DNA of 64,000 nt, taken from the IMG/VR virus record IMGVR_UViG_3300045988_133913, positions 1-64,000 of that record; one strand, given 5' to 3'. The position numbers were made by a program, and so were the translations under genes. The DNA comes from a virus. Of the stretch, positions 1,852 to 51,752 are shown one piece after another. The notes under the pieces are model-generated. The model saw only the letters and a program-made list of their open reading frames with translations, was not told the DNA's origin and did not search any database. Position 1 is the first letter of the stretch; the number at the start of each line of letters is the position of its first letter.

Positions 1852-2550
1852 ATGAATCTTATTTCTTTACAACAAGCCACCATGACTAGCTTGGATATAG
1901 CTAACTTGGTGGCTTCTCGGCACGATAATGTGCGCGTGTCTATCGAACGCCTTGCCGAACGCGGCGTTATTCAACTTCCGCCAATGCAGGAAGTTGAAAA
2001 CAAACAAGCCACTAGCCCAAACAGCAAAAGTAAGGTCTATGTATTTTCTGGCGAACAAGGTAAACGTGACAGCATTGTTGTGGTAGCTCAGCTTTCCCCA
2101 GAGTTCACGGCGCGCCTTGTGGACCGTTGGCAAGAACTAGAGAAAGCCACAGGTACATACCAAATCCCGCAGACCTACCCCGAAGCACTCCGCGCCTACG
2201 CTGATGAGCTGGAAGCTCACGAGAAGACCAAACAGGCACTCGAAGCTGCGAAACCAAAAGCCGAATATTTCGATAATCTTGTTTCCCGAAACCTGTTGGT
2301 AAACATCCGAGACACCGCGAAGGAGCTGCGGGTCAAGCAGAACGAGTTTGTGAATTTCTTACTAGGAAACGGTTATCTGTACCGCGACCAGAAAGGCAAG
2401 CTGCGACCATACGCACAGCACACACCAGCGCTGTTCGAGGTCAAGGAATTTACTCGCGGGGAGTATTCGGATGTGCAGACCTTGGTTACTCCAACAGGGC
2501 GTGAGACCTTCCGCTTGCTGCTACAAGTGCCAACGCTAGAAAATAAATGA
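1852..2550 (+). CDS. Rha-family phage regulatory protein / antirepressor (N-terminal Rha-like region, C-terminal KilA-C-like region)
   Basis: N-terminal ...DIANLVASRHDNVRVSIERL... matches the Rha signature. GGAG sits 6 nt upstream of the ATG. Confidence 0.6.
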   Translation: MNLISLQQATMTSLDIANLVASRHDNVRVSIERLAERGVIQLPPMQEVENKQATSPNSKSKVYVFSGEQGKRDSIVVVAQLSPEFTARLVDRWQELEKATGTYQIPQTYPEALRAYADELEAHEKTKQALEAAKPKAEYFDNLVSRNLLVNIRDTAKELRVKQNEFVNFLLGNGYLYRDQKGKLRPYAQHTPALFEVKEFTRGEYSDVQTLVTPTGRETFRLLLQVPTLENK

Positions 2551-5952: not shown

Positions 5953-6386
5953 CCTACCAGATTGTGAGAATGCCGACAGACCAAGAAGAACTCTCGCAGA
6001 TGATGGAGGAGTATGTACCGTTCCTGAACGCGATGTACACACCTCATGAGCGGGCGATGTTTGGGGATATAGACTTCGCGATGAGCTACTGGTTTATGTT
6101 GTGGGATACCGGGGCGGGTTACTTCCTGACCCGGCGTAACCCCGCAGGCGAGCTGGTGTTTCTGGCGATGGTTACGAAATACCAAGACCTCTGGAATGGC
6201 AAGTGGCGCATGGAAGTCCACCGCACGGCGGTATCCAGTGCACCGGGGATTGATGGGCAGCACGAAGTGCAGGCAGCGCTGGATTACCTGAAGCAGAACA
6301 GTGGTCTGTTGCAGTTTGACCGCCTGTATTTCACGAACTACTACGAAGACGGCACGGAAGAAAAGCGATTAGTCTGGAAGGTGTGA
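5949..6386 (+). CDS. hypothetical protein
   Basis: 145-aa ORF with GGAG RBS and an ATGA overlap. Confidence 0.45.
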   Translation: MTYQIVRMPTDQEELSQMMEEYVPFLNAMYTPHERAMFGDIDFAMSYWFMLWDTGAGYFLTRRNPAGELVFLAMVTKYQDLWNGKWRMEVHRTAVSSAPGIDGQHEVQAALDYLKQNSGLLQFDRLYFTNYYEDGTEEKRLVWKV

Positions 6387-6387
6387 G

Positions 6388-7284
6388 ATGCCACGCTCTG
6401 ACAATGACGGGATGAACTTCGACGACCTGTTCGGCAAGTGGGGCGGGAAGCCTGACAAGAACGGGAAGAAGAAAGATACGACGCCGAAAGTTCCGGCGGA
6501 TAACCCTGCGTGCAAAAACACCGGGGTCACGGATGAAGGGATAGAGCAGTCTTCCCGCTGGAAGTCCATGCTGTCTGCCGCCATCATGGCGTACAACACA
6601 TGGAATAGCCTGCGCATGGCGAAGTTGCAGCGCGACCTCGCCAGAAAATATTTGCAGATGAGCAAAGACCATCGCAAGTATTACAACGACCGCTTCAAGC
6701 CGCTGGAGAAAGACCTCACCAAAGAAGCGCTGAAGCTGAAGAAGTATGAGCGCGACAAAGAGCCGCTTTATACCGGGCAGATGCTGGTAAGCGTGCGGGG
6801 GAAGAACGCGGGTCAGATTGACAAGGCGGTGTCCTGTACGGGGCGCTACTGCACCGGGCAGCGAGCAGCCATCATAACCGACCAGCTCCTCAAGCAGGCG
6901 ACCCAAGAGAGCCTCGCTGCGGGCATGGCGCATCGCTACACGGACAAGGAAGAAATCGTCCACAACAATCTGCGGTGGGACAAGCGCGAACAAGTGCTGA
7001 AAATCGGGCGCGACATCCCGGCGCAGGCGTCCAGCTTTGCTCAGCTCGCCGCTGGAATTTTCGGCGACCTCGGCACGCAGGCTGGCAAGGCAGCGGAAGG
7101 CGCGATGAGTTTTATCGCCTACGAGAGCAACCGTGCGCAGACACAGTACCCACCGCGACGGGGGGATATGCAGGTGAGCAGCTACCGCTACAATCCTACA
7201 CCGCTTGAGGAGTTCAAGCCGAAGCCGCCGGATGTGTACGTGAAGCCGGAAGAACCGACGCAGACCATAAAAGTGATGGGGTGA
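6388..7284 (+). CDS. hypothetical virion protein, paralog of 7288-8211
   Basis: C-terminal block AAGIFGDLGTQAGKAAEGAMSFIAYESNRAQTQY aligns with AAGLFGDYAKAMGNVASGAMAFSGYVNNRMQTEY in the next gene. Confidence 0.5.
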   Translation: MPRSDNDGMNFDDLFGKWGGKPDKNGKKKDTTPKVPADNPACKNTGVTDEGIEQSSRWKSMLSAAIMAYNTWNSLRMAKLQRDLARKYLQMSKDHRKYYNDRFKPLEKDLTKEALKLKKYERDKEPLYTGQMLVSVRGKNAGQIDKAVSCTGRYCTGQRAAIITDQLLKQATQESLAAGMAHRYTDKEEIVHNNLRWDKREQVLKIGRDIPAQASSFAQLAAGIFGDLGTQAGKAAEGAMSFIAYESNRAQTQYPPRRGDMQVSSYRYNPTPLEEFKPKPPDVYVKPEEPTQTIKVMG

Positions 7285-7287
7285 TAA

Positions 7288-8211
7288 ATGAGCGGATTAC
7301 CAGTCGTTGTAACCACCGGTAGGCTTGAGCGGGTAAATGACGTTTCCATCAAGGCGTTCCCTTGCCCGAAGGTAAACGACAAGGGGCTGACGGGAGCTTG
7401 GTGGTGGGCAGATAAAATCGCCATCGCGGTTGCGCTATGGGCTACCTACGAGACATGGAAGGCGGCGAAGGAAGAATACAAAATCGGCAAGGACTACTAC
7501 GACCTTGCGAAAGAACAATGGGATTTCTTCCTCGAAAACTACCGCCCGCTGGAAGACCAAGAGCTGTCAGAGATATGGGCAGAGCCTCCCTACGAGCCAG
7601 ATTACCCCAAATCCATCGCAGGGCATACCAACACCATAGACAAGGTTTTCGCCGCCGCAGAACGTCATAGGAGCGCCCTCACGGATAAATATTGCGTCTG
7701 CCCCGACGTGTCGATGTTCACCAAGACCGACATCATGAAATCAACCGTGCGCGGCGACTCTGATAACTTCGGTCGTCGCTACGCCGAGAAGCTGGCGCAG
7801 GAGAAGAACGACATCCGCTGGCAGCGACGCATATCGACCGCCAGTCGTGGACGCAACCTGCTATCCGAGAGCGCCTCCCTCGCCAGCAAGGCGGCAGGGC
7901 TGTTCGGGGACTATGCTAAGGCGATGGGCAACGTAGCATCAGGGGCAATGGCGTTTTCCGGCTACGTGAACAACCGGATGCAGACGGAATACAACCCGGT
8001 GCGCCAACGCATCAACGCCCGTGCTGATGTGCCGAATACTTACCGGGGATTCGACGCACAGGCTTACTGGGGCGACGGCAGCCGGATGCTGGAGAACACT
8101 CCGCGCGGGGGCATTTCGTGGCAGCAAGCGGAAGCCAACGCACCCTACGATGGCGCGGGTGGGGTTGCAGGTTACGACCCGACAGGATATGCTTCCGCTT
8201 CAATGAGATAA
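7288..8211 (+). CDS. hypothetical virion protein, paralog of 6388-7284
   Basis: Shares the same C-terminal block. GGGGTG RBS. Confidence 0.5.
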   Translation: MSGLPVVVTTGRLERVNDVSIKAFPCPKVNDKGLTGAWWWADKIAIAVALWATYETWKAAKEEYKIGKDYYDLAKEQWDFFLENYRPLEDQELSEIWAEPPYEPDYPKSIAGHTNTIDKVFAAAERHRSALTDKYCVCPDVSMFTKTDIMKSTVRGDSDNFGRRYAEKLAQEKNDIRWQRRISTASRGRNLLSESASLASKAAGLFGDYAKAMGNVASGAMAFSGYVNNRMQTEYNPVRQRINARADVPNTYRGFDAQAYWGDGSRMLENTPRGGISWQQAEANAPYDGAGGVAGYDPTGYASASMR

Positions 8212-8223
8212 GGGGACGAAATA

Positions 8224-9555
8224 ATGTACATACCAGATTTATTCGGCGCGTTCATGAAAGGCAAGGAATATGCTAACGACCGTAACTGGAATGACCTCAA
8301 GCAGTATGAAGCGGTAGAAGCCGCTCGCAACGCCAACGACCTTTCCTCGCTGGATATTCTGGGGCAGCGGGCGCAGTTCGGTGGCAAGATGAGTGTTTTC
8401 CAGAACAACGTGGATAACTCCGCACGGGCAAACGAGGTTGCCGAAGCCGCGCAGCCGGGGCTACTTGCCAACGCCAGCACAGGTAGCATGATTCAGATGG
8501 ACCAGCGCAGCGCGTTTATGAACAACCGCGACGATTACCAGACCATGCTGAACAACACAGCCCAAGCCAATATCGGTAAGGGCATCGACGCGGCGGCGGT
8601 GCAGATGGGCGCTAACGATTACCTGACGCCTGAACGTGCCGCGCAGATGGGTGGCTGGCGCGGGGAGGACATTTACAACACGGCGATGTCCAACAACATC
8701 ACCACAGGTCATGCGCCAACGGTTGCCGCGCAGGGCGTCGTAACGAATGACAAGCTGTACGATAATAATCTGCTAGGCTTGGACTACGACCGTGATGTGC
8801 TGGAAGGGAATATCAAACGCCAGCCCGTAATCGGTGCTATTAAAGACCGCAACGCCGCCAACCAGTACGCCGACGCGAACACCTACCTGACCGACAAGGC
8901 GAAGTTAGTGCAGCGAGAGAACCAGCGCCAGCGACAAGGGCTTCTGAACACGATTAGCAACCTCCAGCGCCAGCGTGCAGCATTTGCCGCCGACCCGATG
9001 ATGGCAGGGCAGGTGCAGGAACTCACGCAACAGATAGCCGAGTATCAGGCAGAGCTTCAGCGACTGACTGGGGGCGAAACAGCGGATGTGTACATCACCG
9101 CGCCGGGTCAGGCGATGGCGACGGTGCGCAGCCTCGTGCCGGGCGGGCAGGTGTACCAGCAGGGGGTTGGTCCGCGACCCCTGCAAGGACAGGTCATCAT
9201 GCCGCCCCCGCAGCCTGCGCAGCAGCCCGTGCAACAACCCCAATCCGCACCGCAAGCCGCTATTGACCCCAAAGTTCATTCGCAGAACGTGGAAGCCAAG
9301 ATGGCGTACGTTGCCGACAAGCAGGCGCAGGGTACGTATGACCCGAACGAAGTCATCATGATTGACGGTGTCCCTTACACCGCAGGGCAGCTTGTGTACC
9401 TCCAGAACGTTCAGCCTAGTATGACAAGCACCGTAGCAGAAGGGGTATCTATGGGGCTGCTAGGGCCGGTGGGTTACGCCAGCCAGTATTTGCTCGGGAC
9501 TAATCCTGCGTATGCCCGGCAAATCGCGGCGGCACGTGCAGCAGCGGGGCGGTAA
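8224..9555 (+). CDS. hypothetical virion protein (443 aa, Q/P-rich C-terminal region)
   Basis: Long ORF in the structural run with a GGGG RBS. Confidence 0.5.
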   Translation: MYIPDLFGAFMKGKEYANDRNWNDLKQYEAVEAARNANDLSSLDILGQRAQFGGKMSVFQNNVDNSARANEVAEAAQPGLLANASTGSMIQMDQRSAFMNNRDDYQTMLNNTAQANIGKGIDAAAVQMGANDYLTPERAAQMGGWRGEDIYNTAMSNNITTGHAPTVAAQGVVTNDKLYDNNLLGLDYDRDVLEGNIKRQPVIGAIKDRNAANQYADANTYLTDKAKLVQRENQRQRQGLLNTISNLQRQRAAFAADPMMAGQVQELTQQIAEYQAELQRLTGGETADVYITAPGQAMATVRSLVPGGQVYQQGVGPRPLQGQVIMPPPQPAQQPVQQPQSAPQAAIDPKVHSQNVEAKMAYVADKQAQGTYDPNEVIMIDGVPYTAGQLVYLQNVQPSMTSTVAEGVSMGLLGPVGYASQYLLGTNPAYARQIAAARAAAGR

Positions 9556-9558
9556 GTT

Positions 9559-10446
9559 ATGGCACGGAGGAAGGGGAATACCAACGAATCGCGCAACATG
9601 AGTATGGTGTTGCAAGCGTTTCAAAATGCCGGGTTGTCGCCAAACCAAGCGCGGATTCTCGCCGCCGAGGTGGGGCGGGAAAACGCATTCCAAGACCGCT
9701 ACCTGTGGGGGTATCACAAAGACCCCGGAAACGGCGCGGTCAATCTGGGGATTATCTCGTGGCAAGGCACACGCGGACGGAATCTGGAGAAACAGCTTGC
9801 GGCACAAGGGCTGATTAAGAACGGGGTGATGGAGCAGTCACAACGCGCGCTGGATGCACAAGCGCGCTTTTTGGTAAACGAGATAAAGAACGACCCTGCC
9901 TACGCCAAGACCAAAAAGCTGTTTCTGTCCAACCCGAACGTGGACTACAACACAGGCGTCCGGGTGCTGGGTAAGGACTTTATCCGCTGGCGCATCGACG
10001 ACCCGAAGTACGCTGCCAAAGGCGCGGCGTCCCGTGACGGTTTTTATCGGAAGCTAGGCGGGGTAGCCCCGCAAGATGGTGGCGTGGTGCAGACAGGAGC
10101 GTCTGCGCCCTCCGTAGCGCCGCTTATTCCGGCGTCTGGGGCGATAAACGCAGCAGCCAATACCGTGAATGACCTGATGGCACAGAACGCTCCCCAGAGC
10201 GACCTGATGGGCAAAAACGTGCTGGCTGGCAGCGTAGGCTTCGCCGTTCCAGAAACACCTTTGCAGAACAAACTGTACGGCGAGGTCGCAGAACAAGGCT
10301 TACCGCCGCAGAAAGAATCCATCGCGGCGGTGGCGGCTGATACCATCTCGAAAACTTACGACCAGATGTTTAACCAACCTTTGGTAAAATCCTCCAGTCC
10401 TAGCATCGACGCGCTGATGCAAATCTTTAACGCTCTGGAAGTCTGA
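9559..10446 (+). CDS. internal virion protein with lysozyme-like (phage-tail-lysozyme-type) N-terminal domain
   Basis: AEVGRENAFQDRYLWGYHKDPGNGAVNLGIISWQGTRGRNL resembles the conserved block of phage tail lysozyme / PG hydrolase domains. It sits directly before the giant gene. Confidence 0.35.
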   Translation: MARRKGNTNESRNMSMVLQAFQNAGLSPNQARILAAEVGRENAFQDRYLWGYHKDPGNGAVNLGIISWQGTRGRNLEKQLAAQGLIKNGVMEQSQRALDAQARFLVNEIKNDPAYAKTKKLFLSNPNVDYNTGVRVLGKDFIRWRIDDPKYAAKGAASRDGFYRKLGGVAPQDGGVVQTGASAPSVAPLIPASGAINAAANTVNDLMAQNAPQSDLMGKNVLAGSVGFAVPETPLQNKLYGEVAEQGLPPQKESIAAVAADTISKTYDQMFNQPLVKSSSPSIDALMQIFNALEV

Positions 10447-10448
10447 TA

Positions 10449-13400
10449 ATGGCGAAGAACAATTCTCTCGAAACTCCCCTCTCCATGCCTAAACTGCCTG
10501 ACCTCGACCAAGACCTGTTCGGCGCGGGCGCAGGGGCGATATTCAACCAGTCCGATGACCTGCTCAACCCGAAGGCGGTAGCGCCTCTGGGGGCGCAGCA
10601 AGGCAAACTTTCTCCGGCTGCACAGGCGCTGGCATCGGCACAGCGTGAGCAGAACGACCTGCTGAACTACGCGACTGAACAGCAGGCGAAAATCCAGCAG
10701 CAGGAAGCCCGCCAACAGGCAGCGTTTGACCGTCAGCAGGCGGCACAGCGCCGGGAAACCGACGCGGCTATCCGCCAGTATCAGCGGGACAAAAAGGAGC
10801 GCGAGAAGGCGCTGAAAGAGAAAGCGAAGGAACAGGGCGGTGTGCTAGGCGCTGGCGCGGATGGTTCGTTTGTCCTGAAGCCGATGGTTGAAACCATCCT
10901 AGCTGATAAGAATTGGAAGGACATCAAGTCCAGCTTCCAGCGCGAGGACGAGGCGCAAGGCTGGCTGAAAGAAAAAGCCGTTCAGTTGAAGGAGCAGGGC
11001 ATCCCCGAAGACCTCATCAACAACGAGCTGCGGGTGGCTGGCGCGCTGTTCAAGCAGGATACGGACGCCTACACCAAGCAGCGTTCGGAAGACCGTGCTG
11101 ACCCGCTCGATGCGGTTTCATGGCTAGGTAAGGCAGGGCGCAACCTATACAAAGGCACGGTGCTGTGGCTATCCCCGGTATGGAACAAAACCATCGGCAA
11201 AACGGGGCTTACTTTCGACACGGAGGAGTTTGTCCGCGAACAGAATGACGCGATAAATTCCATTGATTCAACGTTGTCCGACAAGATTCACTTTGCCCAA
11301 GAGAACAACGAATACCTGACCCAGAAACGCCGGGCGCAGGGTAAGGACGGACTTGTTGCAGGATTCACAGGCGGCATCGCCGATATGTGGAAAGCGGACA
11401 ATATGCTTTACACCATGCTGGACTCCGCCGCTTACATTCCTTACTCCGCCGCTGTAGGCGCGAGTGCGGGGGCGTTTGCTTCTCGCGTCGGCGCGGCTAC
11501 TCGTCTTACCCCGGCGATTGAAGGTATTACCGCGCGGGTAAACGCCGCTGCGGCTGCACCGGGTGCAAGTCTCGCGACGCGAATCGGCGCTAAAGCGGCT
11601 TCTCACCTGTTATCTTCCGAGGTAGCGGGTGGTATGGCGACTACCGGGTTCTTTGCCGCCACGGACGCCGCTGGTGGCGCATACGACGCCGTTTACAACC
11701 AAGACGAGGACACCTTCCGCCAGACCTACATCAAAGCAAACGGCGAGGAAAACTGGAACAACCTCGTGCAGTATTACGGCTCTGCGGGCAAAGCACGTGC
11801 AGCGCTCGCAGAACAGGCTGCGGTATCGGCAGGTAATTCCGCCTTCATAAACACCGCGCTGCTAGGCGCTGCCGGTTTGGAAACTACGCTGCTCAAGGCG
11901 AACAAGTTTGGGCTTCAGACGTTTGCGGGCAAGCGCTTGGCGACGGCTGGCGCTAACTCCGTGTCTGAACTCCTCGAAGAAGGCTTGACGCAATATTCAC
12001 AAAACGTCGGCGCGCAGCCTGCGACTGGCGTGGATTTGCTGGAAGGCGTGCCGGAAGCAGCCGCTATCGGTTTCGTCGCAGGCGGCTCGATGGCAGGCGG
12101 TACGCAGGTGCTTGGTGCGCTAGGCAAAGGCGTAAAAAACTACGTCGCTCCAGAGTTCGATGCAGCACGGCTTGACCCTACGCAGTACGTGCATCAGAAT
12201 CAGTTGGACTACGACAGCTATCGGCAGGTGGTCGGGCGCGAGATGGACAACATCGCACGCACCGGACGCCGGGCTAAGTGGCACGAAACTGACATCGGCT
12301 CTGCGCAGCAGATGGCGTATGACACGATAATCGACGACCCGTCCAAGTGGGAATCCTTTACGCCAGACCAGCGCGCGCAGATGCAGGAGTACCTGAAGCA
12401 AGCCTACAACATCAACACCAACCCGTATGCCCAAGTGGAGCGTCAAACGCTGACTGACATTTGGGAGAATGGCGACACGCACGTACTGAATGCTTGGCTG
12501 CAAAGCGAGGAAAAAGGCATCGGCGAGGACATACGCAACGCCTTCCGTGTCAAGCACGGTGTCGAGTTAGAGAACGTGCCGGATGGTGTGCGCGCCTACT
12601 CTGAAGCGCTGGCTAACGCTATCGACTACCAGATTGCCGCCCCGGTACTACGCGACACGAACGAGCAATGGAAGGCGATGCGGGATTACGTCAAGACCCA
12701 AGTCGAGACTAACCCGACGCTCACCCGCGAACAGCAGAAAGGCATCGACGCCATTCTCGCTAATTACCTCGATGCAGGTCGTCGTCGCTTGACCGATGAG
12801 CAAGTCGCGGCGGCACAATCACAACCGACAGGACAACCCAATGAGCCAGCAAATACCGGCGCAGGACAAGGCGCGCCTACTGAAAATACTCAACCAGTCG
12901 CAGGAGAAAGCGGTGCAGCTCCGGCAGCAGGAGCAGGAAGCACAGGCGGAGAAACCCAAAGCGTGGGGCAGCCTGACGCTGCACCGGCAGGAGGAGTTAA
13001 TCCTCAAGGCGCTGGAGTCGATAATGCACAGCAAGGAAATCAGCCCGGCGGTGGGACAGACGCTCCCGCCCAAACTGTTCAGCCTGCTGGAGGAGCAGCG
13101 CAAGCACCTGCATCTGGGGCGCAGCCGGGAGTTACAGCCCCGGTTGGAAATGCTGGTCAAACGGCTGCGGGACAAAGGGCTGCTGGACAGACCAGCGCAA
13201 CCGGACAACCCGCTCAACCGATTAACCCCGGCGCAGCGCCGCAGGCAGGAAGCAGCGGAGGCGTTGGAGCTGCGACGCCAGAACGCAATCCAAATGGTGG
13301 AAGCAACCAAGCTGCTACCCAAGCGGTCGGTGTAACGGGCGCTTATAGCCCGCAGGCTGATTTACGCGATGCTAGTCATGCGTGGGCACAGTTATCCAAA

Positions 13401-16400
13401 GCGCAAAAATCAGCTCTCGCGAAAATTGGCATCAGCACCCCGGCGCAGTTGCTGGATATTCTGAAAAACGACGACACAGTCGCCGAAGCCGGGCAACGTC
13501 TGGCGCGGACTGGTCGCGTGCGCAGCATGACGATGAAGTCGGTGCAGGACGCGCTGAAAGCCGCCCGTGACTACATCACGTCGCCAGAGTGGGTGTTTAA
13601 CAAGCTGACCCAAGACCAGCTCGGGCTTAGTGCCAACGAGGCAAGTATCCCCGCGGCGGTCGCAGCGCTTCAGGCAAGCGACGAAATTACCGCACGGAAA
13701 ATTAGCCAGCTCGCCAAAGGCGCGGCGGAAATCTACGGGCTGGAGGACGCCTCTAAGGAAGACAAAATCGCCTACGCAGCCAAGCTGCTGCTTGACATCG
13801 CACAGCTCGCCAAGACCTCACCACAGCTATTAGATGTGGCGATGCGGCTCAAGGGCGCGCCGGAATCGTGGTTTCAGGACGACGTTGACAAGCTGCTGAA
13901 GAACGACATCTGGGCGACGCTCCAGTCTGCACCGGGCATTTTTGAACAAGCCGGGGTGGACTTCAGCCAGTCCCGCCCGAACGTCACCCAGTCACAGCAG
14001 AATCTCTGGTCGGCGCGTGCGGTATTGTTCACGCTGAAGCAGAACATCAAGGCAGGCGATGCCAGAAGTAAAGCGGTTCAGGCAGGGCTGGATAAAGCCG
14101 CCAAGCGCATCACCGACATGGGCGGCGAAAAAGGACGCCTCTCGCTGCTGTTTTCGATGCTGGAAGCCGACAGCCGGGGCGAAGACCTGACAGGTTTTCT
14201 GGAAAACTACTACATCGGTTCGCGCGCTTCGGCAGATGCTATCGCGGGCGTTATCCGCGCGTATCAGGATGCGAAAACCTACATGGCATCCCCCGACTTC
14301 CAGAACAGCCTGCGGGCGGATAACTGGCTGCGGCAGGCGGACAAGTCGGTTTACGTGCAGGCTATCCGCGATTATGTGCGCAATAATTACGCAGCATTCA
14401 ACCAGATGCTGATTCAGGATGCCGAAGTGGCGTCTGGCAAGAGCGCCCGCACGCGCGTCGCTGGCACGAATTTTGAAACGCAGGCAGTAAACACCGACAT
14501 TCTTGCCGACGTACTGGCTGATGTGGTGCATAACACCGCACGCCTCGGACGGGAGTATGCAGGCGAGATTGCCCGCTCCTACGCCGGACGGGATGAAAAC
14601 GGCAACCGGGTTATCAAGCCGTCTGCGGTCAAGCGTTTTCTGGAACAAGCAGATACCATCGCAGCTAACCTTCGGCAGCAGTATCTGGACGGTAAGCTGG
14701 CGCAACAATCCACCCAGCCTGAAGACGAGTCCGAGCAGTTGGTACAACAGGGCGACGACCTTTCCCGCCTGATGGAGGAGTTCAACGCCGGGCAGCAACC
14801 GGATGCCGACGCGGTCATGGGCGACCTCGACGACGCCGTTCGCGGCATTCCGGCGCAGCCGCGCAATGGTGAGAAGCAGATTAAAAACGGTGGCTTCGAC
14901 AGCCCTGAAGCGGCAGAAGACGCGCTTTCCCCGGAGTTGTTCCAGCACCCGGAAACGGTGGAAGAACTCGATACGCTGTTGCGGTCCATCGCAGAAACAA
15001 CTGGGCTAGACCCGCTGCTGGTCGGCGAGTATATTGCTCGTGAGTGGTTGAGCCAGTCGGAAGAAGACTACGCAGATGCGTCAACAGACGAACTGCTGGA
15101 CATGGTGTACGACGCGGCTAACGATATTTGGATTTACGTTGGAGAACAGAATGCAACACAACAAATTGCAGATACAAAACGTCTCGAAGGACCTCGCTCG
15201 ATTACTGCCGACGGACGGCGCATCACGCGACAATCTCAAGACCCTACTGGGTCACTGGCAAGAGCGTTACAGCCGAACCTCTCCGGCGGCGCATACGCAC
15301 AGCTAGCCCGTCCTAGCCAGCCTGCCCCGGTGCGACTTGCGATAGCACCTGTCGAGGAGATTGTTGCCGAGTTCGGCGGGCAGGAGTTCTCCCTCGCTGA
15401 GATTATCGAGAATACCGAAAACCAGCGGGGAGACCGTTCACCCACGCTAGGCGAACTCGCACCGGAAGATAACAACGCCCCGCGCCCGGTTATCGAACTG
15501 ACGGTAAATGGCGTGAAGCACCGGGGCAGGCTATTCCGCTGGCGTGACCGCAAGAACGGTCGTAATCGTCGTCATGTGGTGTTTGTCCACGACGGCGACG
15601 CTTTCGGTATGCGTGGGTGGGACGATAAGTGGATAGACTTTGGTAATGCTGTTACCCGCAAGCGTGTGGACAGCATCAACCAAAACGACGGCATCCGCAT
15701 CGAGGTGCTGGCAGACCAATCTGAAAATCAGGAGCAAACAAATGATAAAACCGAGAAACGTACTCAGCGAACTGGGCGCAGCGAGACCGAGGATGAAAAC
15801 AATTCAGGAATCGTGGGGGACGTTCGAGATGCCGATGTCGCCGCGCGAGGAAGCGACAACACGGATGCGCGAGCTGATGAATCCGAGCAGGACGAAGGTT
15901 CTGGGCAGTCCGATGAAAGTGAACGCGGAAGTGGAGCGGCTGAAGGACGACTAGAAACCCCTGCGCCCGTAGATGTTCCGCAGGGGCTAGACTACACCCC
16001 CGAGCAGGTAGCAGAAATTGACCCGGCGTCGCTTACGGCGGATGAGCGTGCAGCACTTAACCGCCAAGACGATACGAGCGAGTTTATTGCTAACGCCCTC
16101 TACGACATCGAGGGCGCGCTGGAAGATTTCGGTGGGGAAGATTCTGCCGCCCTGCGCAGCGGGCTTGCCAAAATGGCAGCGCTGCTGGCAGACCCTGCTG
16201 CGCCAAGACGGGCTACGCCGACGACGGTTACCGAACAAGCCGCCGGGCGCAAAGAGGTTGCCGACATTATCACCGACGAGGAGCGCGACATTCTCGACGC
16301 CTACCTCGAAGACGTCGGTAACACCGAGCAGAGCGCGGAGGAGTTTGCCGAAGAAGCCATCGCCGACAACCAGTTCGAGGATAGCAGCCTGCCGAAGAAA

Positions 16401-19400
16401 GTCCGCGCTGTGCTGGAGCGTATCTGGAACGCGCTGCGCAACGGCATGGCGGCTGTCTCGATGGCGTTGGCGGTTCACCTCGGCTCAAGTATGGTCGTCA
16501 GCCAGCCTGCCGAAGCCGCGAACCTCACTCCGCAGGCAGGCGAGGTGGTTATGAGCAGCGCTGCCAAAGCGTCGCTAGACCACATCATCGACACCGCCGA
16601 CAACGGTGGACGCCCGTTTGTGATTGCCGACAAAAAGGCGGGCAAGCTGTACCTGATGAACGCCGAGGGCAAGGTGGTGGACACCACTCCGGCGCTGTTT
16701 GGCAAGACGCCTTCCGACGCCGCGAAGACGGCGGGTGCTACGGGTGCGGGCAAATACGACCTGACCTACAACCGCGACACCCGTCTGCCATCCGGTTACG
16801 CGGGCAGCGTGCAGTCGTTCGACACCGGAGCAAATGGCGAGCAGTTTGCCATCCACCGTGTTATTGACGTCAAGGGGCAGAACCGTCAGAGCCGACTGGA
16901 TAGCAAGACCGTCCGCGACAACCGCATCACGCTTGGTTGTATCAACGTTCCGGCGGAGTTCTACGACGCCCACCTAGACAACGAGCTAGGCGCGGTGCTG
17001 TACGTGTTGCCGGAAACCGCTAACTGGGGTGGCGACCTGTATGGCAAGACCCCCCGTCAGTCTGCACAGCCGACGCCACAGGCGGTTAAAATCGCAACCG
17101 AGGGTACTTCCCTTACCCCAGAGCAGTTACTGGCTGCAACGCGCTCTCAGGCGGATAATCTGATAGCGAACGTACGTGGCAACATGGACAACGCCAGCTA
17201 CCAGCCTGTGCAGGTAACACCCGAACAGTTACAGGCGGCGACGGAAGCCGGGCGGAAGGTAACGACCCAACCTGTGCAGGCGCAAGCGCCCATCCAGATT
17301 GCGGGCGTCCAGCCGTCCACGCAGACCGCCTATATCAGTCCGGTCATGGTAAACGGTGTATCCGCTAACACCCTTGTCGTGCCGTTCGAGGCGCATACCC
17401 CTGCCGAGATGCAAGCAAATGGCGTGTTCGACACACAGCCTGTAGGTAACAAGACCGAGAGTGGGGATAGCCTGTACACCATCGCGTCGTGGCTGGCTGC
17501 CGCGTTCGCTGCGGGCAAGGTGAATAGCCGTCGCAAGAAGCGTCTGGAGAGCCGCAAGAAAGCCAACGAGGAACGGTTGGCGCGGATTGAAGCGAAGAAC
17601 AATCCAGAGCTGAAGTCTGAACCGGAGGACACTTCCGTCGTTCCAGACGAAGCCGAGGTGGAAACCGCCGTCGCCGACAACCACGACGTGCAGGCAGCCT
17701 TTGCGAAACAAGCCGGTACACACAACCCGCAGACGCCGCTGTCGCAGGCGGTCGCGCAGGCTGTGCGCCAGCAGAACGTGCTGGAGAATAAAGCCGATTG
17801 GATTCATGCATTCGCGATGCGGTATTCCAGCGATGAGGCGCAGTACCAGCAACTGCTCGCCACGATGGGCAATTTCGAGTACAACCTCGGTGGTGTGCTG
17901 ACCGACCGCTCTTACACCCAGAGTGGTGACTTCCGTGACCGCAGGCGCTGGCGCGGCGACCAGACTGATGCAAGCCGTGTGGGGATGTTGCAGGCGTTCA
18001 TGCGCTTCGCAGGCGGGGCGACGGTTGCGTTCGATAATCTGTTGCACCGTGTCGGGTCTGCCGCGTTCGGACACGAAGCCGACAGCGCCATCGCCAGCAA
18101 GATGCTCTCGCAGGTACGCGCCAAGTCGTCCGGGGCGTATGCGCAGCTACACAAGACGCTCATCCACCCACTCGTCATGCAGACCGCCACGCTTGCCAGC
18201 CAGATGCGTCGGGGTCACGGCGAGATTGAAATCGACACCGGCAGAACCGCCACGCTGAACCACATCCTCAACGAAGGCGCGGAGCAGATGTGGAAAGGTG
18301 CAGAGCTGGAAATCGCCAAGATGAAGCTGGACTTGCAGGAGGTGGAAGCGCAAATCCGTTCTACCGCTGCCGGGTCGCAGATTCAGCAGACGTGGACGAG
18401 CAAGCAGTTGCAACTGCTGAAGGACATCGAAGCCGCCCAGACACTCCTAGACCGCCAGCGCGATATGTACTACGGGCGCGAGGAGTGGGACGGCACGACT
18501 GACCTGCCGGGTGGTTACACCGAGGCGCAGGCTAAGACCGAGCTGCAAGCGCTCAAGGATAAATACGGGGAAGACTTCGCCAAGATTGAAGCGCACAGCA
18601 AGGAGCTGGTGCAGACCATTCAGGGCATCCGCAACTTCGCCGCCGCTGCTGGGGTAGTAACCAACGACCAGCTAGCGATGTACAACGAGATGGGCTTCAA
18701 GGAGTACGTACCGCTGTATTCGCCGCAGGAAGATGTATCCAAGACTGACGAAAGCATCAGCATCATGCAGACCTCCCGCATGGACAGACTGCTGGAAGGT
18801 ATCCCGCTGGCACAGGCGAAGTCGATGGGGCTGACCCGCGACCTCTCCCGCTTTAAGCGTAAGGGCGCAACCAGCCCGGCGGAAGACGCTTATACCAACA
18901 TGAAGGTGTATGCGATGAACACCGCAGGACGTGTGGGGCAGCAGGGCTGGTTGCAGGCGGTGCAGCAGCTCTACGAAGGCACAATCGGCAAGCCGTACTC
19001 CGTGGCGGGTAACCTCGGCGAAGAAACGCTAAAAGAGCTGAACAGCCAGCCGGAAGGCAAGCTGCCGGGGCTGATTCGTGTGCGTCCGGGTATGGAGGAT
19101 TACCTGCCTGCCCACTTGCAGACCGCCATCGCAGCACCGGGTGGACGCATCCGCGCTATCCGCGCCAAGGGCTACAACAGCGCAGGCGAGCTGGTGGACT
19201 ACCACTACTACTTCACGGACAAGGCAATCCAGCAAGAGGTTTACTACACCTCGGACACCAGCGAGAGCTTCATGATGCGTATCGGGCGCAACGCCGGGAC
19301 AATTACCCGGTTCGCCGCGCGGATGATGACTACCTTCCGCCCCGTCTGGAACGTGTACAACTGGGTGCGGGACAGCATCGAGCGGATAAGCATTATGATT

Positions 19401-21143
19401 GCCCGCCCGGTCAAGGACAAAAACGGTGACCTCATCAACCGCTGGACGCTTGCCAAGACCTACGCATCGCACCTCGCGCGTCTCGCTTCCAGTCTGGAGG
19501 CGCAGAACGAAATTATGCGCTACCTCTCCACAGGCGAGCTGGTGACAGAACTTCAGCGCACGCTGGATGAAGCCGTCGGGGAAGGTGCAATAAACCTGAT
19601 GACGACCCAGACGGACAAGCACTCCGTGATGAGCGACCTGCGCAAGTCCGACCTTGACCGCCTGCTGGATACCACCTCAAGGATGCTTGGCACGACGGCA
19701 AACAAACTGGGTGTCGGTCAGGGCAAGGCATGGCTAGGGGATATTGCCGAATACTACGTGCAGCGCATGACGGAAGTGCCGCAGGTAACGACGGCGCTGG
19801 CGTCTTATCTGGCGTACCGCGAACTTGGCGTGAACAAGCACGAGCGCGCCAACCGGGTGCGCGACCAGTATGACCCGACCCGCACCCGCAGCGAGATTGT
19901 GCGCGGGCTATCTACCATGTACCCATTCGTGCGTTCCACCTTCTCCGGTCACTACAACCTGATGCGGACGCTGAGTGAATACTGGAATCCCGGCGAGCGT
20001 GGCTTCACCACCCTGTACCTCGCTGGCGGCACTGCTGCCATGATGGCAATCCTTGCCCTCGCCGCAGGCGCTATCGGCGACGACGATGACGGTGTGCCGC
20101 TGGTTGCCCGTATGCCCATCGGTACACTCATGAACGGCATCCCCATCCGCACGCCGGATGGTGGTGTCTGGAGTGCGCCTGTAGGCTTCGGGATGCCCAA
20201 GCTGATGTGGGGGACGGCGGTCAACCTTTACCGCCTCGCCTACGGCGAACAGAGTGCTTCTGACATGAGCCGCTCCATGCTAGGACTGGTGATGGACAAC
20301 ACCTCACCTGTGCAGGTGGCAAGCGGCGCGGCGTTCGACCGCGATGTGGGCGCGGGCGCGGCGCTTAGTTTCGCCCCGCTGCTGGCTGTGCCGTTTGTCG
20401 AGATGATGACAAACACGAAGGCATACACCGGGCAGAAAATTTACAACCGCGAAACGCCCAGAGGCGAACGTGATGCCGACCAAGGTGGGTTCAACATACC
20501 GGAAGCCTACAAGGACACCGCACAGACTCTCACCGGCATGGGTATCGACGTGCGCCCGGAAACGCTCAAGCACCTGCTGGAAACATTCAGCTATGGTCCG
20601 CTCAAAGCGATACCGACCTCCCTGCTGGCGGACAAGTCCGAGAAGTACCTCGGCAACCGCGAGACGAAAGGGGAAGCCGCAGGCGCGCTTGTTACCGCTA
20701 TCGGGATGGACATGGCGTGGTCGCCACACGCGCTGGACGACGAGGCGCGGGTGTACCAGATGCTCGACGATATTTACCCTATCTTGGGGAGATACGGCAT
20801 TACCGAAATCTCGCACGACAAGAGCGAATACAAGCGCTTCGGTATCGAGGGGCGGGAGAACCGCAAGGCACGTCTGCTATACGCCAAGATGGTCGCCGCT
20901 GGCGCACCAGAGTGGGAAGCGTCCTTTGTCCGCGACGCGGTTATGCACAAGACCTCGCGCCAGAAAGCCATCAAGGAGTTCCAAGCAGGGTCGGAAGCCT
21001 ACCTGAAAGCGAAGGCTAACGGGGAGGAAAACGAACAACTGCGTGCAGCCCTTGAAAACCAATGGAATGCCATCGAAAATAGCGACCAGAATTTCCTACG
21101 CCAATACAACGAAGACGCCTATGAGATGCAAGACGACTACTAG
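10449..21143 (+). CDS. giant virion-associated protein (3,564 aa), putative internal/ejection protein, with an embedded YkuD-like L,D-transpeptidase domain
   Basis: Uninterrupted 10.7-kb ORF. It has a G/A-rich N-terminus, a G/P/Q low-complexity linker and acidic tracts. The YkuD-like block spans nt 16557-17015 and includes a GC(I)N catalytic-like motif. Confidence 0.8.
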   Translation: MAKNNSLETPLSMPKLPDLDQDLFGAGAGAIFNQSDDLLNPKAVAPLGAQQGKLSPAAQALASAQREQNDLLNYATEQQAKIQQQEARQQAAFDRQQAAQRRETDAAIRQYQRDKKEREKALKEKAKEQGGVLGAGADGSFVLKPMVETILADKNWKDIKSSFQREDEAQGWLKEKAVQLKEQGIPEDLINNELRVAGALFKQDTDAYTKQRSEDRADPLDAVSWLGKAGRNLYKGTVLWLSPVWNKTIGKTGLTFDTEEFVREQNDAINSIDSTLSDKIHFAQENNEYLTQKRRAQGKDGLVAGFTGGIADMWKADNMLYTMLDSAAYIPYSAAVGASAGAFASRVGAATRLTPAIEGITARVNAAAAAPGASLATRIGAKAASHLLSSEVAGGMATTGFFAATDAAGGAYDAVYNQDEDTFRQTYIKANGEENWNNLVQYYGSAGKARAALAEQAAVSAGNSAFINTALLGAAGLETTLLKANKFGLQTFAGKRLATAGANSVSELLEEGLTQYSQNVGAQPATGVDLLEGVPEAAAIGFVAGGSMAGGTQVLGALGKGVKNYVAPEFDAARLDPTQYVHQNQLDYDSYRQVVGREMDNIARTGRRAKWHETDIGSAQQMAYDTIIDDPSKWESFTPDQRAQMQEYLKQAYNINTNPYAQVERQTLTDIWENGDTHVLNAWLQSEEKGIGEDIRNAFRVKHGVELENVPDGVRAYSEALANAIDYQIAAPVLRDTNEQWKAMRDYVKTQVETNPTLTREQQKGIDAILANYLDAGRRRLTDEQVAAAQSQPTGQPNEPANTGAGQGAPTENTQPVAGESGAAPAAGAGSTGGETQSVGQPDAAPAGGVNPQGAGVDNAQQGNQPGGGTDAPAQTVQPAGGAAQAPASGAQPGVTAPVGNAGQTAAGQRAAGQTSATGQPAQPINPGAAPQAGSSGGVGAATPERNPNGGSNQAATQAVGVTGAYSPQADLRDASHAWAQLSKAQKSALAKIGISTPAQLLDILKNDDTVAEAGQRLARTGRVRSMTMKSVQDALKAARDYITSPEWVFNKLTQDQLGLSANEASIPAAVAALQASDEITARKISQLAKGAAEIYGLEDASKEDKIAYAAKLLLDIAQLAKTSPQLLDVAMRLKGAPESWFQDDVDKLLKNDIWATLQSAPGIFEQAGVDFSQSRPNVTQSQQNLWSARAVLFTLKQNIKAGDARSKAVQAGLDKAAKRITDMGGEKGRLSLLFSMLEADSRGEDLTGFLENYYIGSRASADAIAGVIRAYQDAKTYMASPDFQNSLRADNWLRQADKSVYVQAIRDYVRNNYAAFNQMLIQDAEVASGKSARTRVAGTNFETQAVNTDILADVLADVVHNTARLGREYAGEIARSYAGRDENGNRVIKPSAVKRFLEQADTIAANLRQQYLDGKLAQQSTQPEDESEQLVQQGDDLSRLMEEFNAGQQPDADAVMGDLDDAVRGIPAQPRNGEKQIKNGGFDSPEAAEDALSPELFQHPETVEELDTLLRSIAETTGLDPLLVGEYIAREWLSQSEEDYADASTDELLDMVYDAANDIWIYVGEQNATQQIADTKRLEGPRSITADGRRITRQSQDPTGSLARALQPNLSGGAYAQLARPSQPAPVRLAIAPVEEIVAEFGGQEFSLAEIIENTENQRGDRSPTLGELAPEDNNAPRPVIELTVNGVKHRGRLFRWRDRKNGRNRRHVVFVHDGDAFGMRGWDDKWIDFGNAVTRKRVDSINQNDGIRIEVLADQSENQEQTNDKTEKRTQRTGRSETEDENNSGIVGDVRDADVAARGSDNTDARADESEQDEGSGQSDESERGSGAAEGRLETPAPVDVPQGLDYTPEQVAEIDPASLTADERAALNRQDDTSEFIANALYDIEGALEDFGGEDSAALRSGLAKMAALLADPAAPRRATPTTVTEQAAGRKEVADIITDEERDILDAYLEDVGNTEQSAEEFAEEAIADNQFEDSSLPKKVRAVLERIWNALRNGMAAVSMALAVHLGSSMVVSQPAEAANLTPQAGEVVMSSAAKASLDHIIDTADNGGRPFVIADKKAGKLYLMNAEGKVVDTTPALFGKTPSDAAKTAGATGAGKYDLTYNRDTRLPSGYAGSVQSFDTGANGEQFAIHRVIDVKGQNRQSRLDSKTVRDNRITLGCINVPAEFYDAHLDNELGAVLYVLPETANWGGDLYGKTPRQSAQPTPQAVKIATEGTSLTPEQLLAATRSQADNLIANVRGNMDNASYQPVQVTPEQLQAATEAGRKVTTQPVQAQAPIQIAGVQPSTQTAYISPVMVNGVSANTLVVPFEAHTPAEMQANGVFDTQPVGNKTESGDSLYTIASWLAAAFAAGKVNSRRKKRLESRKKANEERLARIEAKNNPELKSEPEDTSVVPDEAEVETAVADNHDVQAAFAKQAGTHNPQTPLSQAVAQAVRQQNVLENKADWIHAFAMRYSSDEAQYQQLLATMGNFEYNLGGVLTDRSYTQSGDFRDRRRWRGDQTDASRVGMLQAFMRFAGGATVAFDNLLHRVGSAAFGHEADSAIASKMLSQVRAKSSGAYAQLHKTLIHPLVMQTATLASQMRRGHGEIEIDTGRTATLNHILNEGAEQMWKGAELEIAKMKLDLQEVEAQIRSTAAGSQIQQTWTSKQLQLLKDIEAAQTLLDRQRDMYYGREEWDGTTDLPGGYTEAQAKTELQALKDKYGEDFAKIEAHSKELVQTIQGIRNFAAAAGVVTNDQLAMYNEMGFKEYVPLYSPQEDVSKTDESISIMQTSRMDRLLEGIPLAQAKSMGLTRDLSRFKRKGATSPAEDAYTNMKVYAMNTAGRVGQQGWLQAVQQLYEGTIGKPYSVAGNLGEETLKELNSQPEGKLPGLIRVRPGMEDYLPAHLQTAIAAPGGRIRAIRAKGYNSAGELVDYHYYFTDKAIQQEVYYTSDTSESFMMRIGRNAGTITRFAARMMTTFRPVWNVYNWVRDSIERISIMIARPVKDKNGDLINRWTLAKTYASHLARLASSLEAQNEIMRYLSTGELVTELQRTLDEAVGEGAINLMTTQTDKHSVMSDLRKSDLDRLLDTTSRMLGTTANKLGVGQGKAWLGDIAEYYVQRMTEVPQVTTALASYLAYRELGVNKHERANRVRDQYDPTRTRSEIVRGLSTMYPFVRSTFSGHYNLMRTLSEYWNPGERGFTTLYLAGGTAAMMAILALAAGAIGDDDDGVPLVARMPIGTLMNGIPIRTPDGGVWSAPVGFGMPKLMWGTAVNLYRLAYGEQSASDMSRSMLGLVMDNTSPVQVASGAAFDRDVGAGAALSFAPLLAVPFVEMMTNTKAYTGQKIYNRETPRGERDADQGGFNIPEAYKDTAQTLTGMGIDVRPETLKHLLETFSYGPLKAIPTSLLADKSEKYLGNRETKGEAAGALVTAIGMDMAWSPHALDDEARVYQMLDDIYPILGRYGITEISHDKSEYKRFGIEGRENRKARLLYAKMVAAGAPEWEASFVRDAVMHKTSRQKAIKEFQAGSEAYLKAKANGEENEQLRAALENQWNAIENSDQNFLRQYNEDAYEMQDDY

Positions 21144-23062: not shown

Positions 23063-23406
23063 ACTACAAACCCTATATTTACGCCGCTGCCTGCCTGTTC
23101 ATGCTCTGGTGTGGCTATGATGCTGGCAAAACCGTGGGTCGGCAGGATATGCAGAAAGAAGTCCACGCGGCAAAGCTGGAAGTGGACAACATGAAGCGCC
23201 GGGCGCAGGAGATGGCAGACAACCACGCGAAGCAGATGAGTGCCGCCAGCAAGATGTATCAGGAAGTACGTGCAGAAGCCGAAGCTAAACAGAAAGAAAG
23301 GATTGTAAAAGTGCGGGAGATTGTGGAGAAGCCCGTGTACCGTAGCGACTGCATCGACAAATCAGGGTTGGATGAAATCAACAAGGTAATTGGAGGAAGC
23401 AAATGA
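23059..23406 (+). CDS. i-spanin-like protein (N-terminal TM anchor plus periplasmic coiled coil)
   Basis: The N-terminus YIYAAACLFMLWCGY is hydrophobic. The rest is charged and helical. Strong GAGGAGG RBS. Confidence 0.5.
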   Translation: MNYKPYIYAAACLFMLWCGYDAGKTVGRQDMQKEVHAAKLEVDNMKRRAQEMADNHAKQMSAASKMYQEVRAEAEAKQKERIVKVREIVEKPVYRSDCIDKSGLDEINKVIGGSK

Positions 23407-23927
23407 ACGAACTCGACTGGATTGCCGAAGGGCGCAAACTCATCGGCGTGGAAGAAAACGCCAACACCTCTAAGGTCGTCGCCATGTGGCGCGATGGCTT
23501 CGAGGCGTCGGGACAAGCCGGGCGGATGAAAGAGTCCGTGTGGAATACTGGCAGCACGCCGTGGTGCGGAGGCTTCGTCGCCGCCTGCCTCGCCCGTGCA
23601 GGTCTGGGCAAGCACGTGCCGAAAGACTTTCCGCTTGCGCGTGCATGGGCTAAGGTAGGCACACCGCTCTCTAAGCCCGCGTATGGCTGCGTGGTCGTCT
23701 TTACACGCGACGGTGGGGGTCACGTTGGCTTTGTCGTCGGTAAGGACACTAAGGGCAACCTGATGGTGCTAGGCGGCAATCAGGGCAACCACGTCTGCAT
23801 CAAACCGTTCAGCAAAGCGCGCGTGCTGGCGTATCGCTGGTGCGGGCAGACAGGCGCACCTGCACAGGGTCGGTACGACCTACCGCTACTGTCGTCGGAT
23901 GGCAAGGTGAGTACGAATGAAGCGTAG
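23403..23927 (+). CDS. TIGR02594-family peptidoglycan hydrolase (endolysin candidate)
   Basis: Motifs TPWCGGFVAACL and GGHVGFVVG match the TIGR02594 family. GGAGG RBS. Confidence 0.55.
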   Translation: MNELDWIAEGRKLIGVEENANTSKVVAMWRDGFEASGQAGRMKESVWNTGSTPWCGGFVAACLARAGLGKHVPKDFPLARAWAKVGTPLSKPAYGCVVVFTRDGGGHVGFVVGKDTKGNLMVLGGNQGNHVCIKPFSKARVLAYRWCGQTGAPAQGRYDLPLLSSDGKVSTNEA

Positions 23928-51711: not shown

Positions 51712-51752
51712 TTTTGACTCCTTTTATACTTTTGTTAGGGGTTGATGCGTTT

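Follow-up and report, generated by a model that had tools for sequence, protein, structure and literature searches.

The DNA described here (hereafter the window) is a stretch of 64,000 nucleotides, positions 1 to 64,000 of the IMG/VR virus record IMGVR_UViG_3300045988_133913, and represents most of a phage genome of ~66 kb. The subject of this report is a giant open reading frame (ORF) on its plus strand, which occupies 16.7% of the window and encodes a protein of 3,564 amino acids (aa), 386 kDa and isoelectric point 5.0, here considered as a probable ejection protein. The product is composed of several modules of different ancestry and a second, much shorter ORF is nested within the gene. 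The features of the locus are listed below in window coordinates.

10449-21143, plus strand: giant ORF, ATG start, 3,564 aa, without internal stop
10449-10838, plus strand: N-terminal segment, aa 1-130, defined from the consensus of 14 family members
11307-12152, plus strand: core (aa ~287-568) of the N-terminal module (aa 130-800), homologous to residues 188-455 of N4 gp50
12796-13335, plus strand: nested ORF of 179 aa in the +1 frame, ATG start, lying over the linker; a putative gene
12846-13328, plus strand: main-frame low-complexity linker rich in G, P, Q, A and T, aa ~800-960, delimited by composition, codon usage and synonymous divergence
13326-16418, plus strand: lineage-specific middle region, aa ~960-1990, with helical and acidic tracts and a small conserved domain (aa ~1690-1800)
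16443-16526, plus strand: internal signal-anchor-like hydrophobic helix, aa 1999-2017, with an AxA-type motif after it (..SQPAEAAN)
16536-17003, plus strand: probable YkuD (L,D-transpeptidase)-like catalytic domain, aa 2030-2185, from Pfam PF03734, motif and homologues
17472-17522, plus strand: second, weaker hydrophobic segment, aa 2342-2358, LYTIASWLAAAFAAGKV, read from the sequence
17736-21140, plus strand: predicted all-alpha C-terminal module of ~1,135 aa, aa 2430-3564, from structure modelling, BFVD fold search and hhalign
20157-20612, plus strand: LPD38 domain (PF18857), aa ~3237-3388 (E 6.6e-13; 49.6 bits against a cut-off of 27)

A preliminary description of the window, made from the letters of the DNA, had reported an uninterrupted frame of 10.7 kb and 3,564 aa at this place, and its exact coordinates are borne out. 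A stop-free run of 3,564 codons would be expected by chance with a probability of ~1e-53 given the gene's own base composition, and over its entire length the GC content at the three codon positions follows the pattern of coding DNA. Among IMG/VR contigs the frame is unbroken at ~99% identity (L002, L004, L005, and L008), at 64% identity (L009, 3,736 codons open) and at 49% identity (L010-L013, 4,056-4,090 codons open), and the start and N-terminus are conserved in these relatives. Furthermore, clustering at 90% identity places the exact protein at the head of a group of 129 members, which come from many independent assemblies, mostly contigs of 65-69 kb. A frameshift or assembly error splitting the ORF, which the preliminary description had named as grounds for refutation, was not found; such an artefact is ruled out by the unbroken frame in independent assemblies and relatives and by the size of the cluster. 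For some cluster members the contig measures 131-136 kb, roughly double the genome size of ~66 kb; these may represent concatemeric or duplicated assemblies. The compositional peculiarities first reported for the protein are also real: 82% of the residues at aa 801-900 are G, A, P, Q, S, or T, and acidic tracts are present, with net charges of -14 (aa 1401-1600) and -23 (aa 1801-1900).

Relatives of the giant protein are scarce among cultured phages. Megablast gave no DNA match to the window in this collection and, by tblastn, the N-terminal half of the protein matches nothing whereas the C-terminal half matches Pasteurella phage Pmp11 only; a 688-aa neighbor of the giant protein likewise gave no match. 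A word-index homology search with alignments of the C-terminal and N-terminal parts retrieved five proteins and one protein, respectively. In Pmp11 (OR544128; L016) the corresponding feature, at 6238-13209, has ~2,300 codons, bears no annotation beyond 'similar to hypothetical protein' and comes immediately behind the portal gene; it has the distal C-terminal module in common with the window protein (24.7% identity) and runs to the end of the record, which looks incomplete.

The C-terminal module was modeled with AlphaFold2 (AF2) from a 30-sequence alignment as a mostly alpha-helical structure (predicted local distance difference test score, pLDDT, 80.5; predicted template modeling score, pTM, 0.78); a model from a 5-sequence alignment (pLDDT 38.5) was unusable. 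Two hydrophobic helices occur inside the module (aa 3191-3209 and aa 3302-3320) and, close to its end, the LPD38 domain scores above the Pfam gathering threshold; this domain was missed by a full-length Pfam scan and recovered from tiles only. LPD38 is restricted to phage-type polyvalent proteins, a class described in 2017 (Iyer et al.; PMC5512222), and the giant protein shares with that class the character of a very large multidomain chain encoded with late and packaging genes. The segment aa 3108-3451 aligns with residues 4248-4585 of gp70 from phage BcepIL02 (hhalign probability 98.9%, E 1.3e-17), which carries LPD38 (E 9e-37) near its C-terminus at the same relative position. A fold search of BFVD with the model returned 57 matches at E<=1e-3, with TM-scores of 0.4-0.57 over ~1,000-1,100 columns and 12-16% identity. 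These are C-terminal pieces of viral giants, including those of Ralstonia phage Alix and Escherichia phage PTXU04, and their annotations comprise LPD/LPD38, LT_GEWL, RelA/SpoT, methylase and, in one case, 'L,D-TPase catalytic domain-containing protein'. Two proteins considered as examples of a stand-alone C-terminal gene (P0001 and P0002) were ruled out as such because their frame is open to the contig end.

The relationship with BcepIL02 extends to gene order. The genes of the virion module and its surroundings that bear on this comparison are the following.

55611-57095, plus strand: terminase, late operon
57183-59291, plus strand: portal, late operon
4315-5952, plus strand: 'internal virion protein' homologue, 545 aa (phrog_511, E 4.9e-83; BcepIL02 gp63, 31% identity, E 2e-43)
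9559-10446, plus strand: gene directly upstream of the giant ORF, 295 aa (phrog_6922, E 7e-32; phrog_19273 positions 727-834 of 4846, E 5e-17)
23403-23927: lysozyme, downstream of the giant ORF together with small ORFs

The plus-strand late operon runs from terminase to portal and, across the window ends, to the giant ORF as its last large gene. The position at the end of the structural operon that the preliminary description had given to the ORF is in agreement with this order of terminase, portal and internal virion protein genes. The product of 4315-5952 is of the BcepIL02 gp63/933W type and serves as a synteny anchor to the Bcep22-like podoviruses: in BcepIL02, gp63 is followed a few genes on by the 4,667-aa gp70 as the final gene of the virion module, and the giant ORF occupies the matching position. 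It is translationally coupled to the gene upstream (the TGA at 10444-10446 precedes the ATG at 10449). The product of this upstream gene is weakly lysozyme-like at its N-terminus (PF18013, Phage_lysozyme2, E 2.4e-4, below the cut-off) and matches a segment of a 4,846-position giant-protein PHROG, thus a piece that is fused in other phages is a separate gene here.

The giants of the Bcep22-like Lessievirus phages (Bcep22 gp75, BcepIL02 gp70, and JC1 gp69; 4,500-4,670 aa) resemble the window protein in the place of their gene, which is the largest of the virion module, closes it and lies downstream of one for a homologous 'internal virion protein', in carrying an LPD38 module at equal distance from the C-terminus and in being associated with a cell-wall enzyme. 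A weak likeness is also seen in the A/G-rich N-terminal module (gp70 residues 422-601; hhalign probability 66%, E 5.8e-5). The homologous giant of JC1, gp69, is virion-associated by mass spectrometry (PMC9144972). There are also clear differences. No similarity to gp70 is detectable at the level of BLAST, and the window protein lacks the SLT lytic transglycosylase, the LPD3 domain and the DarB-type helicase/methylase region; instead it has an internal signal-anchor and a YkuD-like module, the lysozyme-like piece is encoded by the separate gene upstream, and no homologue of the nested +1-frame ORF was found in gp70.

The N-terminal part points to another well-known giant, gp50 of phage N4 (Schitoviridae), which is a vRNAP (virion RNA polymerase). 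The protein begins with a leader peptide (MAxK..PLxMPxL..LPD..DLFGG; aa 1-27, window 10449-10530) that is kept across distant family members and is followed by a helical stretch rich in Q, A, K, and E; gp50 has no counterpart of this leader, for which a role as a capsid-targeting or docking signal is a guess. Further on, the core of the N-terminal module aligns with gp50 residues 188-455 with an hhalign probability of 97.1% (E 6.5e-11, 14-sequence profile), BLASTP against gp50 gives 26% identity (E 0.002), and aa ~374-762 match positions 235-621 of the 3,406 positions of phrog_2206, 'virion RNA polymerase' (E 1.8e-10). These three comparisons identify an N-terminal domain homologous to the membrane-inserting one of N4 gp50. 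The gp50 stretch aligned to the core covers the predicted membrane-spanning helices of gp50 (residues 224-278), and the isolated N-terminal domain of gp50 inserts into nanodiscs and is the proposed constituent of the inner-membrane complex in the ejectosome of N4 (PMC13434306). By analogy, the N-terminal module of the window protein would insert into membranes as well.

A vRNAP of the N4 type was one of the identities considered in the preliminary description; it would have to be highly divergent, with its catalytic core hidden in aa 960-1990 or in the C-terminal region. The homology of the N-terminal modules is genuine. The two proteins are also of the same size class, as had been noted (3,564 vs 3,500 aa), each is encoded by the final gene of its late operon, and the window protein shares the layout of gp50: an N-terminal domain, a low-complexity linker of ~100-150 aa, a middle of ~1,000 aa and a large C-terminal region (PMC13434306). 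The linker after the N-terminal domain spans ~100 aa in gp50 (PMC13434306) and lies within ~100-160 aa in the two proteins. Nevertheless, the similarity ends with the N-terminal domain. The phrog_2206 profile is matched solely at the positions given above and nowhere in the polymerase core, the best-conserved part of that family, and hhalign of family or module profiles against full-length gp50 gives probabilities <=2% outside the N-terminal domain. No Pfam RNA_pol match appears in ten overlapping tiles at E<=1, no polymerase is retrieved from the PDB with a profile built from 14 family members (3,357 positions), and the confidently modeled C-terminal 1,135 aa have no polymerase among their fold matches. 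These searches thus detected no T7-like single-subunit core (~1,100 aa; motifs T/DxxGR, A, B, and C), whose A, B, and C motifs had not been found on first reading either. As for the region in which a core might hide, aa 960-1990 are the least conserved part of the protein, with indel hot spots, and in family members unrelated domains take their place. The C-terminal module has no similarity by hhalign to the C-terminal domain of gp50 (C1/C2), and LPD38 was looked for in that domain of gp50 and not found.

The genome does not resemble that of N4 either. When all window ORFs were compared with the whole N4 genome by tblastn, neither N4 RNAPII nor other N4 core or structural genes were found, which rules out that the window belongs to an N4-like phage. 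The ORF at 35210-35875 (minus strand) is 41% identical to N4 gp36 (function unknown) and is, besides the giant ORF, the only one in the window with similarity to N4. A hidden polymerase is therefore very unlikely; as judged from profiles and from the modeled structure of the C-terminal module, the giant protein is not an RNA polymerase.

The most conserved module of the giant protein is a probable YkuD-like domain located in the middle of the chain. It shows the lowest ratio of nonsynonymous to synonymous divergence (dN/dS) of the gene, 0.07-0.18, i.e., the strongest purifying selection. The putative catalytic residues are His2136, within 'AIHRV', and Cys2164, within 'DNRITLGCINVP' (codon 16938-16940). 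Cys2164 is the sole cysteine among the 3,564 residues, and nearly all family giants have likewise exactly one. Across 24 aligned family domains the catalytic His and the G-C-x-N and D-K motifs are invariant; relatives at 49% identity carry ITHGCINVP, with the canonical T-H-G-C, at the position of ITLGCINVP in the window protein. Small stand-alone homologues of 228-283 aa, P0050 (35.2 bits) and P0053 (30.7 bits), pass the PF03734 cut-off and match the window domain with E 3e-20 and 3e-17, respectively.

The sequence context of the domain is consistent with export. The signal-anchor-like helix just upstream is conserved; a hydrophobic helix occurs in this position in 59 of 69 family giants and an N-terminal signal-like segment is present in 49 of 72 small stand-alone homologues, which suggests that the YkuD-like domain is a secreted or periplasmic enzyme unit. 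Downstream, a Q/P/T-rich linker (aa 2185-2340) ends in the second hydrophobic segment, which falls below the 1.4 hydrophobicity threshold and is followed by the basic run NSRRKKRLESRKK. Together, the two hydrophobic segments would flank the YkuD-like domain and hold it as a loop in the periplasm.

In comparison with YkuD-fold enzymes such as the L,D-transpeptidases 1zat and 3zg4 and the L,D-carboxypeptidase Csd6 (4xzz), the window domain shares the motif His ... (S/T)-x-G-C-(I/V)-N, a secreted or periplasmic context with a signal-like helix upstream, and stand-alone homologues that pass the Pfam YkuD model. It differs in that the giant-protein subfamily is divergent, with G-C-I-N in place of G-C-I-R and a variable residue before the Gly (L, H, Y, or N), contains extra invariant A-D-K and D-N-R motifs, and is embedded, with putative activity, mid-chain in phage proteins of 2,200-4,466 aa. 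No BLAST-detectable copy of the module is present in the cultured phages of INPHARED, and a literature search yielded nothing relevant on YkuD or L,D-transpeptidase domains in ejection or virion proteins.

The region between the linker and the signal-anchor-like helix (aa ~960-1990) is of a different nature. It is common to the three or four closest relatives only, is 22-46% identical to L011 over most of its length vs 49% for the whole protein, and contains insertion hot spots after aa 959 and after aa 1461, yet its dN/dS of ~0.2-0.5 indicates purifying selection. Within it, a small basic strand-rich domain (aa ~1690-1800, window 15516-15848; ..VIELTVNGVKHRGRLFRWRDRKNGRNRRHVVFVHDGDAFGMRGWDDKWIDFG..) without family assignment is 65-76% conserved among relatives and recurs in a distant giant (P0025). 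No module of the giant protein has a match in NCBIfam. In other family members, the variable slot between the N-terminal and YkuD-like modules is occupied by MuF_C (E 1.9e-12) or DdrB-ParB (E 1.6e-28), which are hallmark and anti-defense domains of phage polyvalent proteins (PMC5512222).

These domains are relevant to another interpretation, in which the protein is an antirestriction factor like DarB and its main job is to protect the incoming DNA rather than to form a conduit. MuF_C and DdrB-ParB are typical of anti-defense polyvalent proteins, the acidic middle region could be an effector, and BcepIL02 gp70, which occupies the same position and shares the C-terminal module, is annotated as 'DarB-like antirestriction'. 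On the other hand, Pfam, PHROG and NCBIfam searches with the whole protein and with tiles found no helicase, methyltransferase or other DarB-type domain, the link to gp70 is beyond the reach of BLAST as stated above, and the best-conserved recognizable parts of the window protein are related to membranes and the cell wall. Antirestriction as the main job is thus unlikely, but as an extra function of the middle region it is compatible with a role in ejection.

Taking these data together, the product of the giant ORF is most probably an ejection protein of the polyvalent class, giant in size and packaged in the virions of an uncultured short-tailed phage, and not a polymerase, an assignment that we base on comparative sequence evidence. 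The second alternative of the preliminary description, a giant ejection or internal virion protein, finds support in the synteny with Bcep22-like phages, in the LPD38 module shared with gp70 and in the homology to the N-terminal domain of gp50.

Several observations weigh against this assignment or some of its parts. Virion association is transferred by analogy, and the homologues it comes from are distant: all that they have in common with the window protein is the C-terminal module and, weakly, the N-terminal one. For the C-terminal module the PDB fold search gave no solved structural relative, so any role given to it is a guess; over aa ~960-1990, which make up 29% of the protein, Pfam, PHROG and NCBIfam recognize no family, and no function is assignable to this stretch. 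The YkuD assignment, which we regard as probable, relies on transitive homology and motif conservation: the window domain itself scores 18.1-21.7 bits with PF03734 (best E 3.2e-4) against a cut-off of 23.4 bits, a Leu replaces the canonical His of the S-H-G-C motif, and PDB profile matches are weak (4xzz, E 0.003; 3zg4, 1zat, and 6fj1, E 0.2-0.8). The membrane topology comes from crude hydropathy and, lastly, the only hint of the host is a 98%-identical fragment binned to a Cardiobacterium metagenome-assembled genome.

We infer the function of the giant protein from these comparisons and envisage the following course of events. A few copies would be packed in the phage head as loosely folded beads on a string and, after adsorption, expelled via the portal and tail, either before the DNA or along with it. 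The N-terminal module, probably also the C-terminal hydrophobic helices, would then insert in the inner membrane and build or anchor a trans-envelope conduit, the part played by T7 gp16 and, in N4, by the N-terminal domain of gp50. The two internal hydrophobic segments would place the YkuD-like domain in the periplasm, where its single cysteine may act on peptidoglycan stem peptides by L,D-endopeptidase/carboxypeptidase-type cleavage, by detachment or attachment of tethers or by local re-crosslinking. This action could open or stabilize the passage and would replace that of the lytic transglycosylase in T7 gp16 and BcepIL02 gp70, and the lysozyme-like product of the upstream gene may add glycan cutting. 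The middle region would be an exchangeable slot for cargo that probably reaches the cytoplasm as an early effector.

N4 gp50 has been described as an analogue of T7 gp16 (PMC13434306), and the window protein would likewise be comparable with both by function: with gp50 as an ejection protein that is likely of the beads-on-a-string type and attached to the inner membrane, and with gp16 (1,318 aa, N-terminal lytic transglycosylase), by function only, as the largest ejection protein combining membrane insertion and a peptidoglycan-acting domain. It is 2.7 times longer than gp16 and has a Cys-based YkuD-like domain mid-protein in place of the N-terminal transglycosylase. Neither sequence nor fold homology to gp16 was found in PDB searches and no SLT domain was detected with Pfam.

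The low-complexity linker deserves separate consideration. The preliminary description had recognized it as such, and the linker is real in the main frame; what had gone unseen is that it is the out-of-frame shadow of a conserved ORF nested in the +1 frame. The anomaly was first flagged by a segment-wise dN/dS analysis. In the linker, main-frame synonymous divergence (pS) is 0.11 against L009 and 0.18 against L011, whereas elsewhere it is 0.54-0.78, a four- to sixfold reduction, and codon usage is atypical, with a shift to codons seldom used elsewhere in the gene (GGA for Gly, 59% vs 8%; CAA for Gln, 65% vs 24%). The nested frame is open for 180-187 codons in six sequences of the lineage (185-187 in L009 and L010-L013), with conserved positions of the ATG and the stop. 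Over the shared bases, identity is higher in the +1 frame than in the main frame (74% vs 57% in L009; 62-63% vs 47-52% in L010-L013), and a scan of the whole gene identified this as the only site where an alternative frame outdoes the main one (0.75 vs 0.58 and 0.63 vs 0.48). Five other alternative-frame ORFs of the giant gene, taken as controls, contain 2-6 stops in the relatives and show about half the conservation of the main frame. The low-complexity peptide is the main-frame one, and the +1-frame protein is compositionally ordinary.

The same relationship accounts for an island of conservation in the main frame of distant members, GGxGAxxTERNxxGGSxQA, which is the shadow of EALELRRQNAIQxVEA in the +1 frame, so that the nested gene is probably family-wide. 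The open frame, the conserved start and stop, the conservation of the encoded protein and the depressed pS are together the signature of overprinting, and the nested ORF very probably constitutes a gene in its own right, coding for a protein and overprinted on the giant one, its expression being putative. It might alternatively be no gene at all, with openness and conservation as side effects of the biased G/A/P/Q codon composition. Long alternative-frame ORFs are common in GC-rich genes (the giant gene holds ten others of >=90 codons), no Shine-Dalgarno sequence is evident upstream of the nested ATG, no homologue was found in cultured phages, in the PDB or in N4 gp50 and BcepIL02 gp70, and the exact sequence was never called as a gene in a collection of 15 billion proteins. 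Given that the controls are all broken and that this window of the gene alone favors an alternative frame, a compositional side effect is improbable. N4 gp50 itself contains no alternative-frame ORF of >=90 codons. Access to the nested ORF by programmed frameshift was judged unlikely because a +1-frame stop lies one codon ahead of the conserved ATG. That the nested product serves as a partner in assembly, ejection or regulation is a guess.

The family to which the giant protein belongs was delineated by an exhaustive HMMER search with the YkuD-like module, which retrieved 428 relatives. The 150 best matches, which are representatives of clusters at 50% identity, include ~70 clusters whose proteins are giants of 2,200-4,466 aa and carry the YkuD-like module in the middle of the chain; the distal C-terminal module is shared by ~45 of these clusters, the proximal one by ~30 and the N-terminal module by ~17.

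With regard to novelty, an identical protein is deposited in GenBank (DAU94243.1, "Large polyvalent protein associated domain 38") and, because the sequence is already public and the class of polyvalent proteins with LPD38 already described, the giant protein is not categorically new. The preliminary proposal of a 'new' giant ejection protein therefore stands in part, for the combination of modules: the protein is distinct in joining an N4-type N-terminal domain and a Bcep22-type C-terminal module without polymerase, a single-cysteine YkuD-like unit, the only enzymatic domain recognizable in it, and the nested gene.

Other features of the window may be mentioned briefly. The minus strand holds a block encoding a primase/helicase, a helicase and a PolA-type polymerase. 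Between the divergent early (minus) and late (plus) operons lie ~2 kb (51700-53750) that are AT-rich (GC ~0.43), free of ORFs of >=100 aa and furnished with both AT-rich direct repeats and palindromes; the stretch is a candidate for an origin of replication or for a region of early promoters. The virion module contains two genes on the plus strand, 6388-7284 and 7288-8211 (298 and 307 aa), which both match phrog_37635 and are apparent tandem paralogues; the second has a weak match to BcepIL02 gp66. A gene for an Ant-type anti-repressor (1852-2550, plus strand; phrog_63, E 1.7e-55) is located inside the late plus-strand block. No tRNAs were found in the window, and two scans of the contigs of GTDB representative genomes found no relative and hence no evidence for a prophage.

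Few components of phages are as poorly understood as giant ejection proteins, and the protein described here links two experimentally studied giants, suggesting a common delivery chassis with a swappable middle. In its fullest form the interpretation comprises a family of at least ~70 clusters, almost only from uncultured phages, that shares a chassis with the N4 vRNAP and the Bcep22-type giants, carries a periplasmic YkuD-like enzyme and contains an essential nested gene; all of this together we put forward tentatively, as somewhat less probable than not. If the shared chassis is true, the N4 vRNAP would have arisen by insertion of a polymerase into it, which would be a route for the acquisition by N4 of its packaged polymerase. 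A YkuD-like domain bracketed by hydrophobic helices would, if true, represent a way of crossing the cell wall unlike that of virion lysozymes and transglycosylases. If the nested gene is essential and overprinted, the low complexity of the linker would be a by-product of dual coding; for annotation, the warning is that stretches of giant phage proteins described as 'low-complexity linkers' can be shadows cast by a second frame, which bears on how disorder in such proteins is read.

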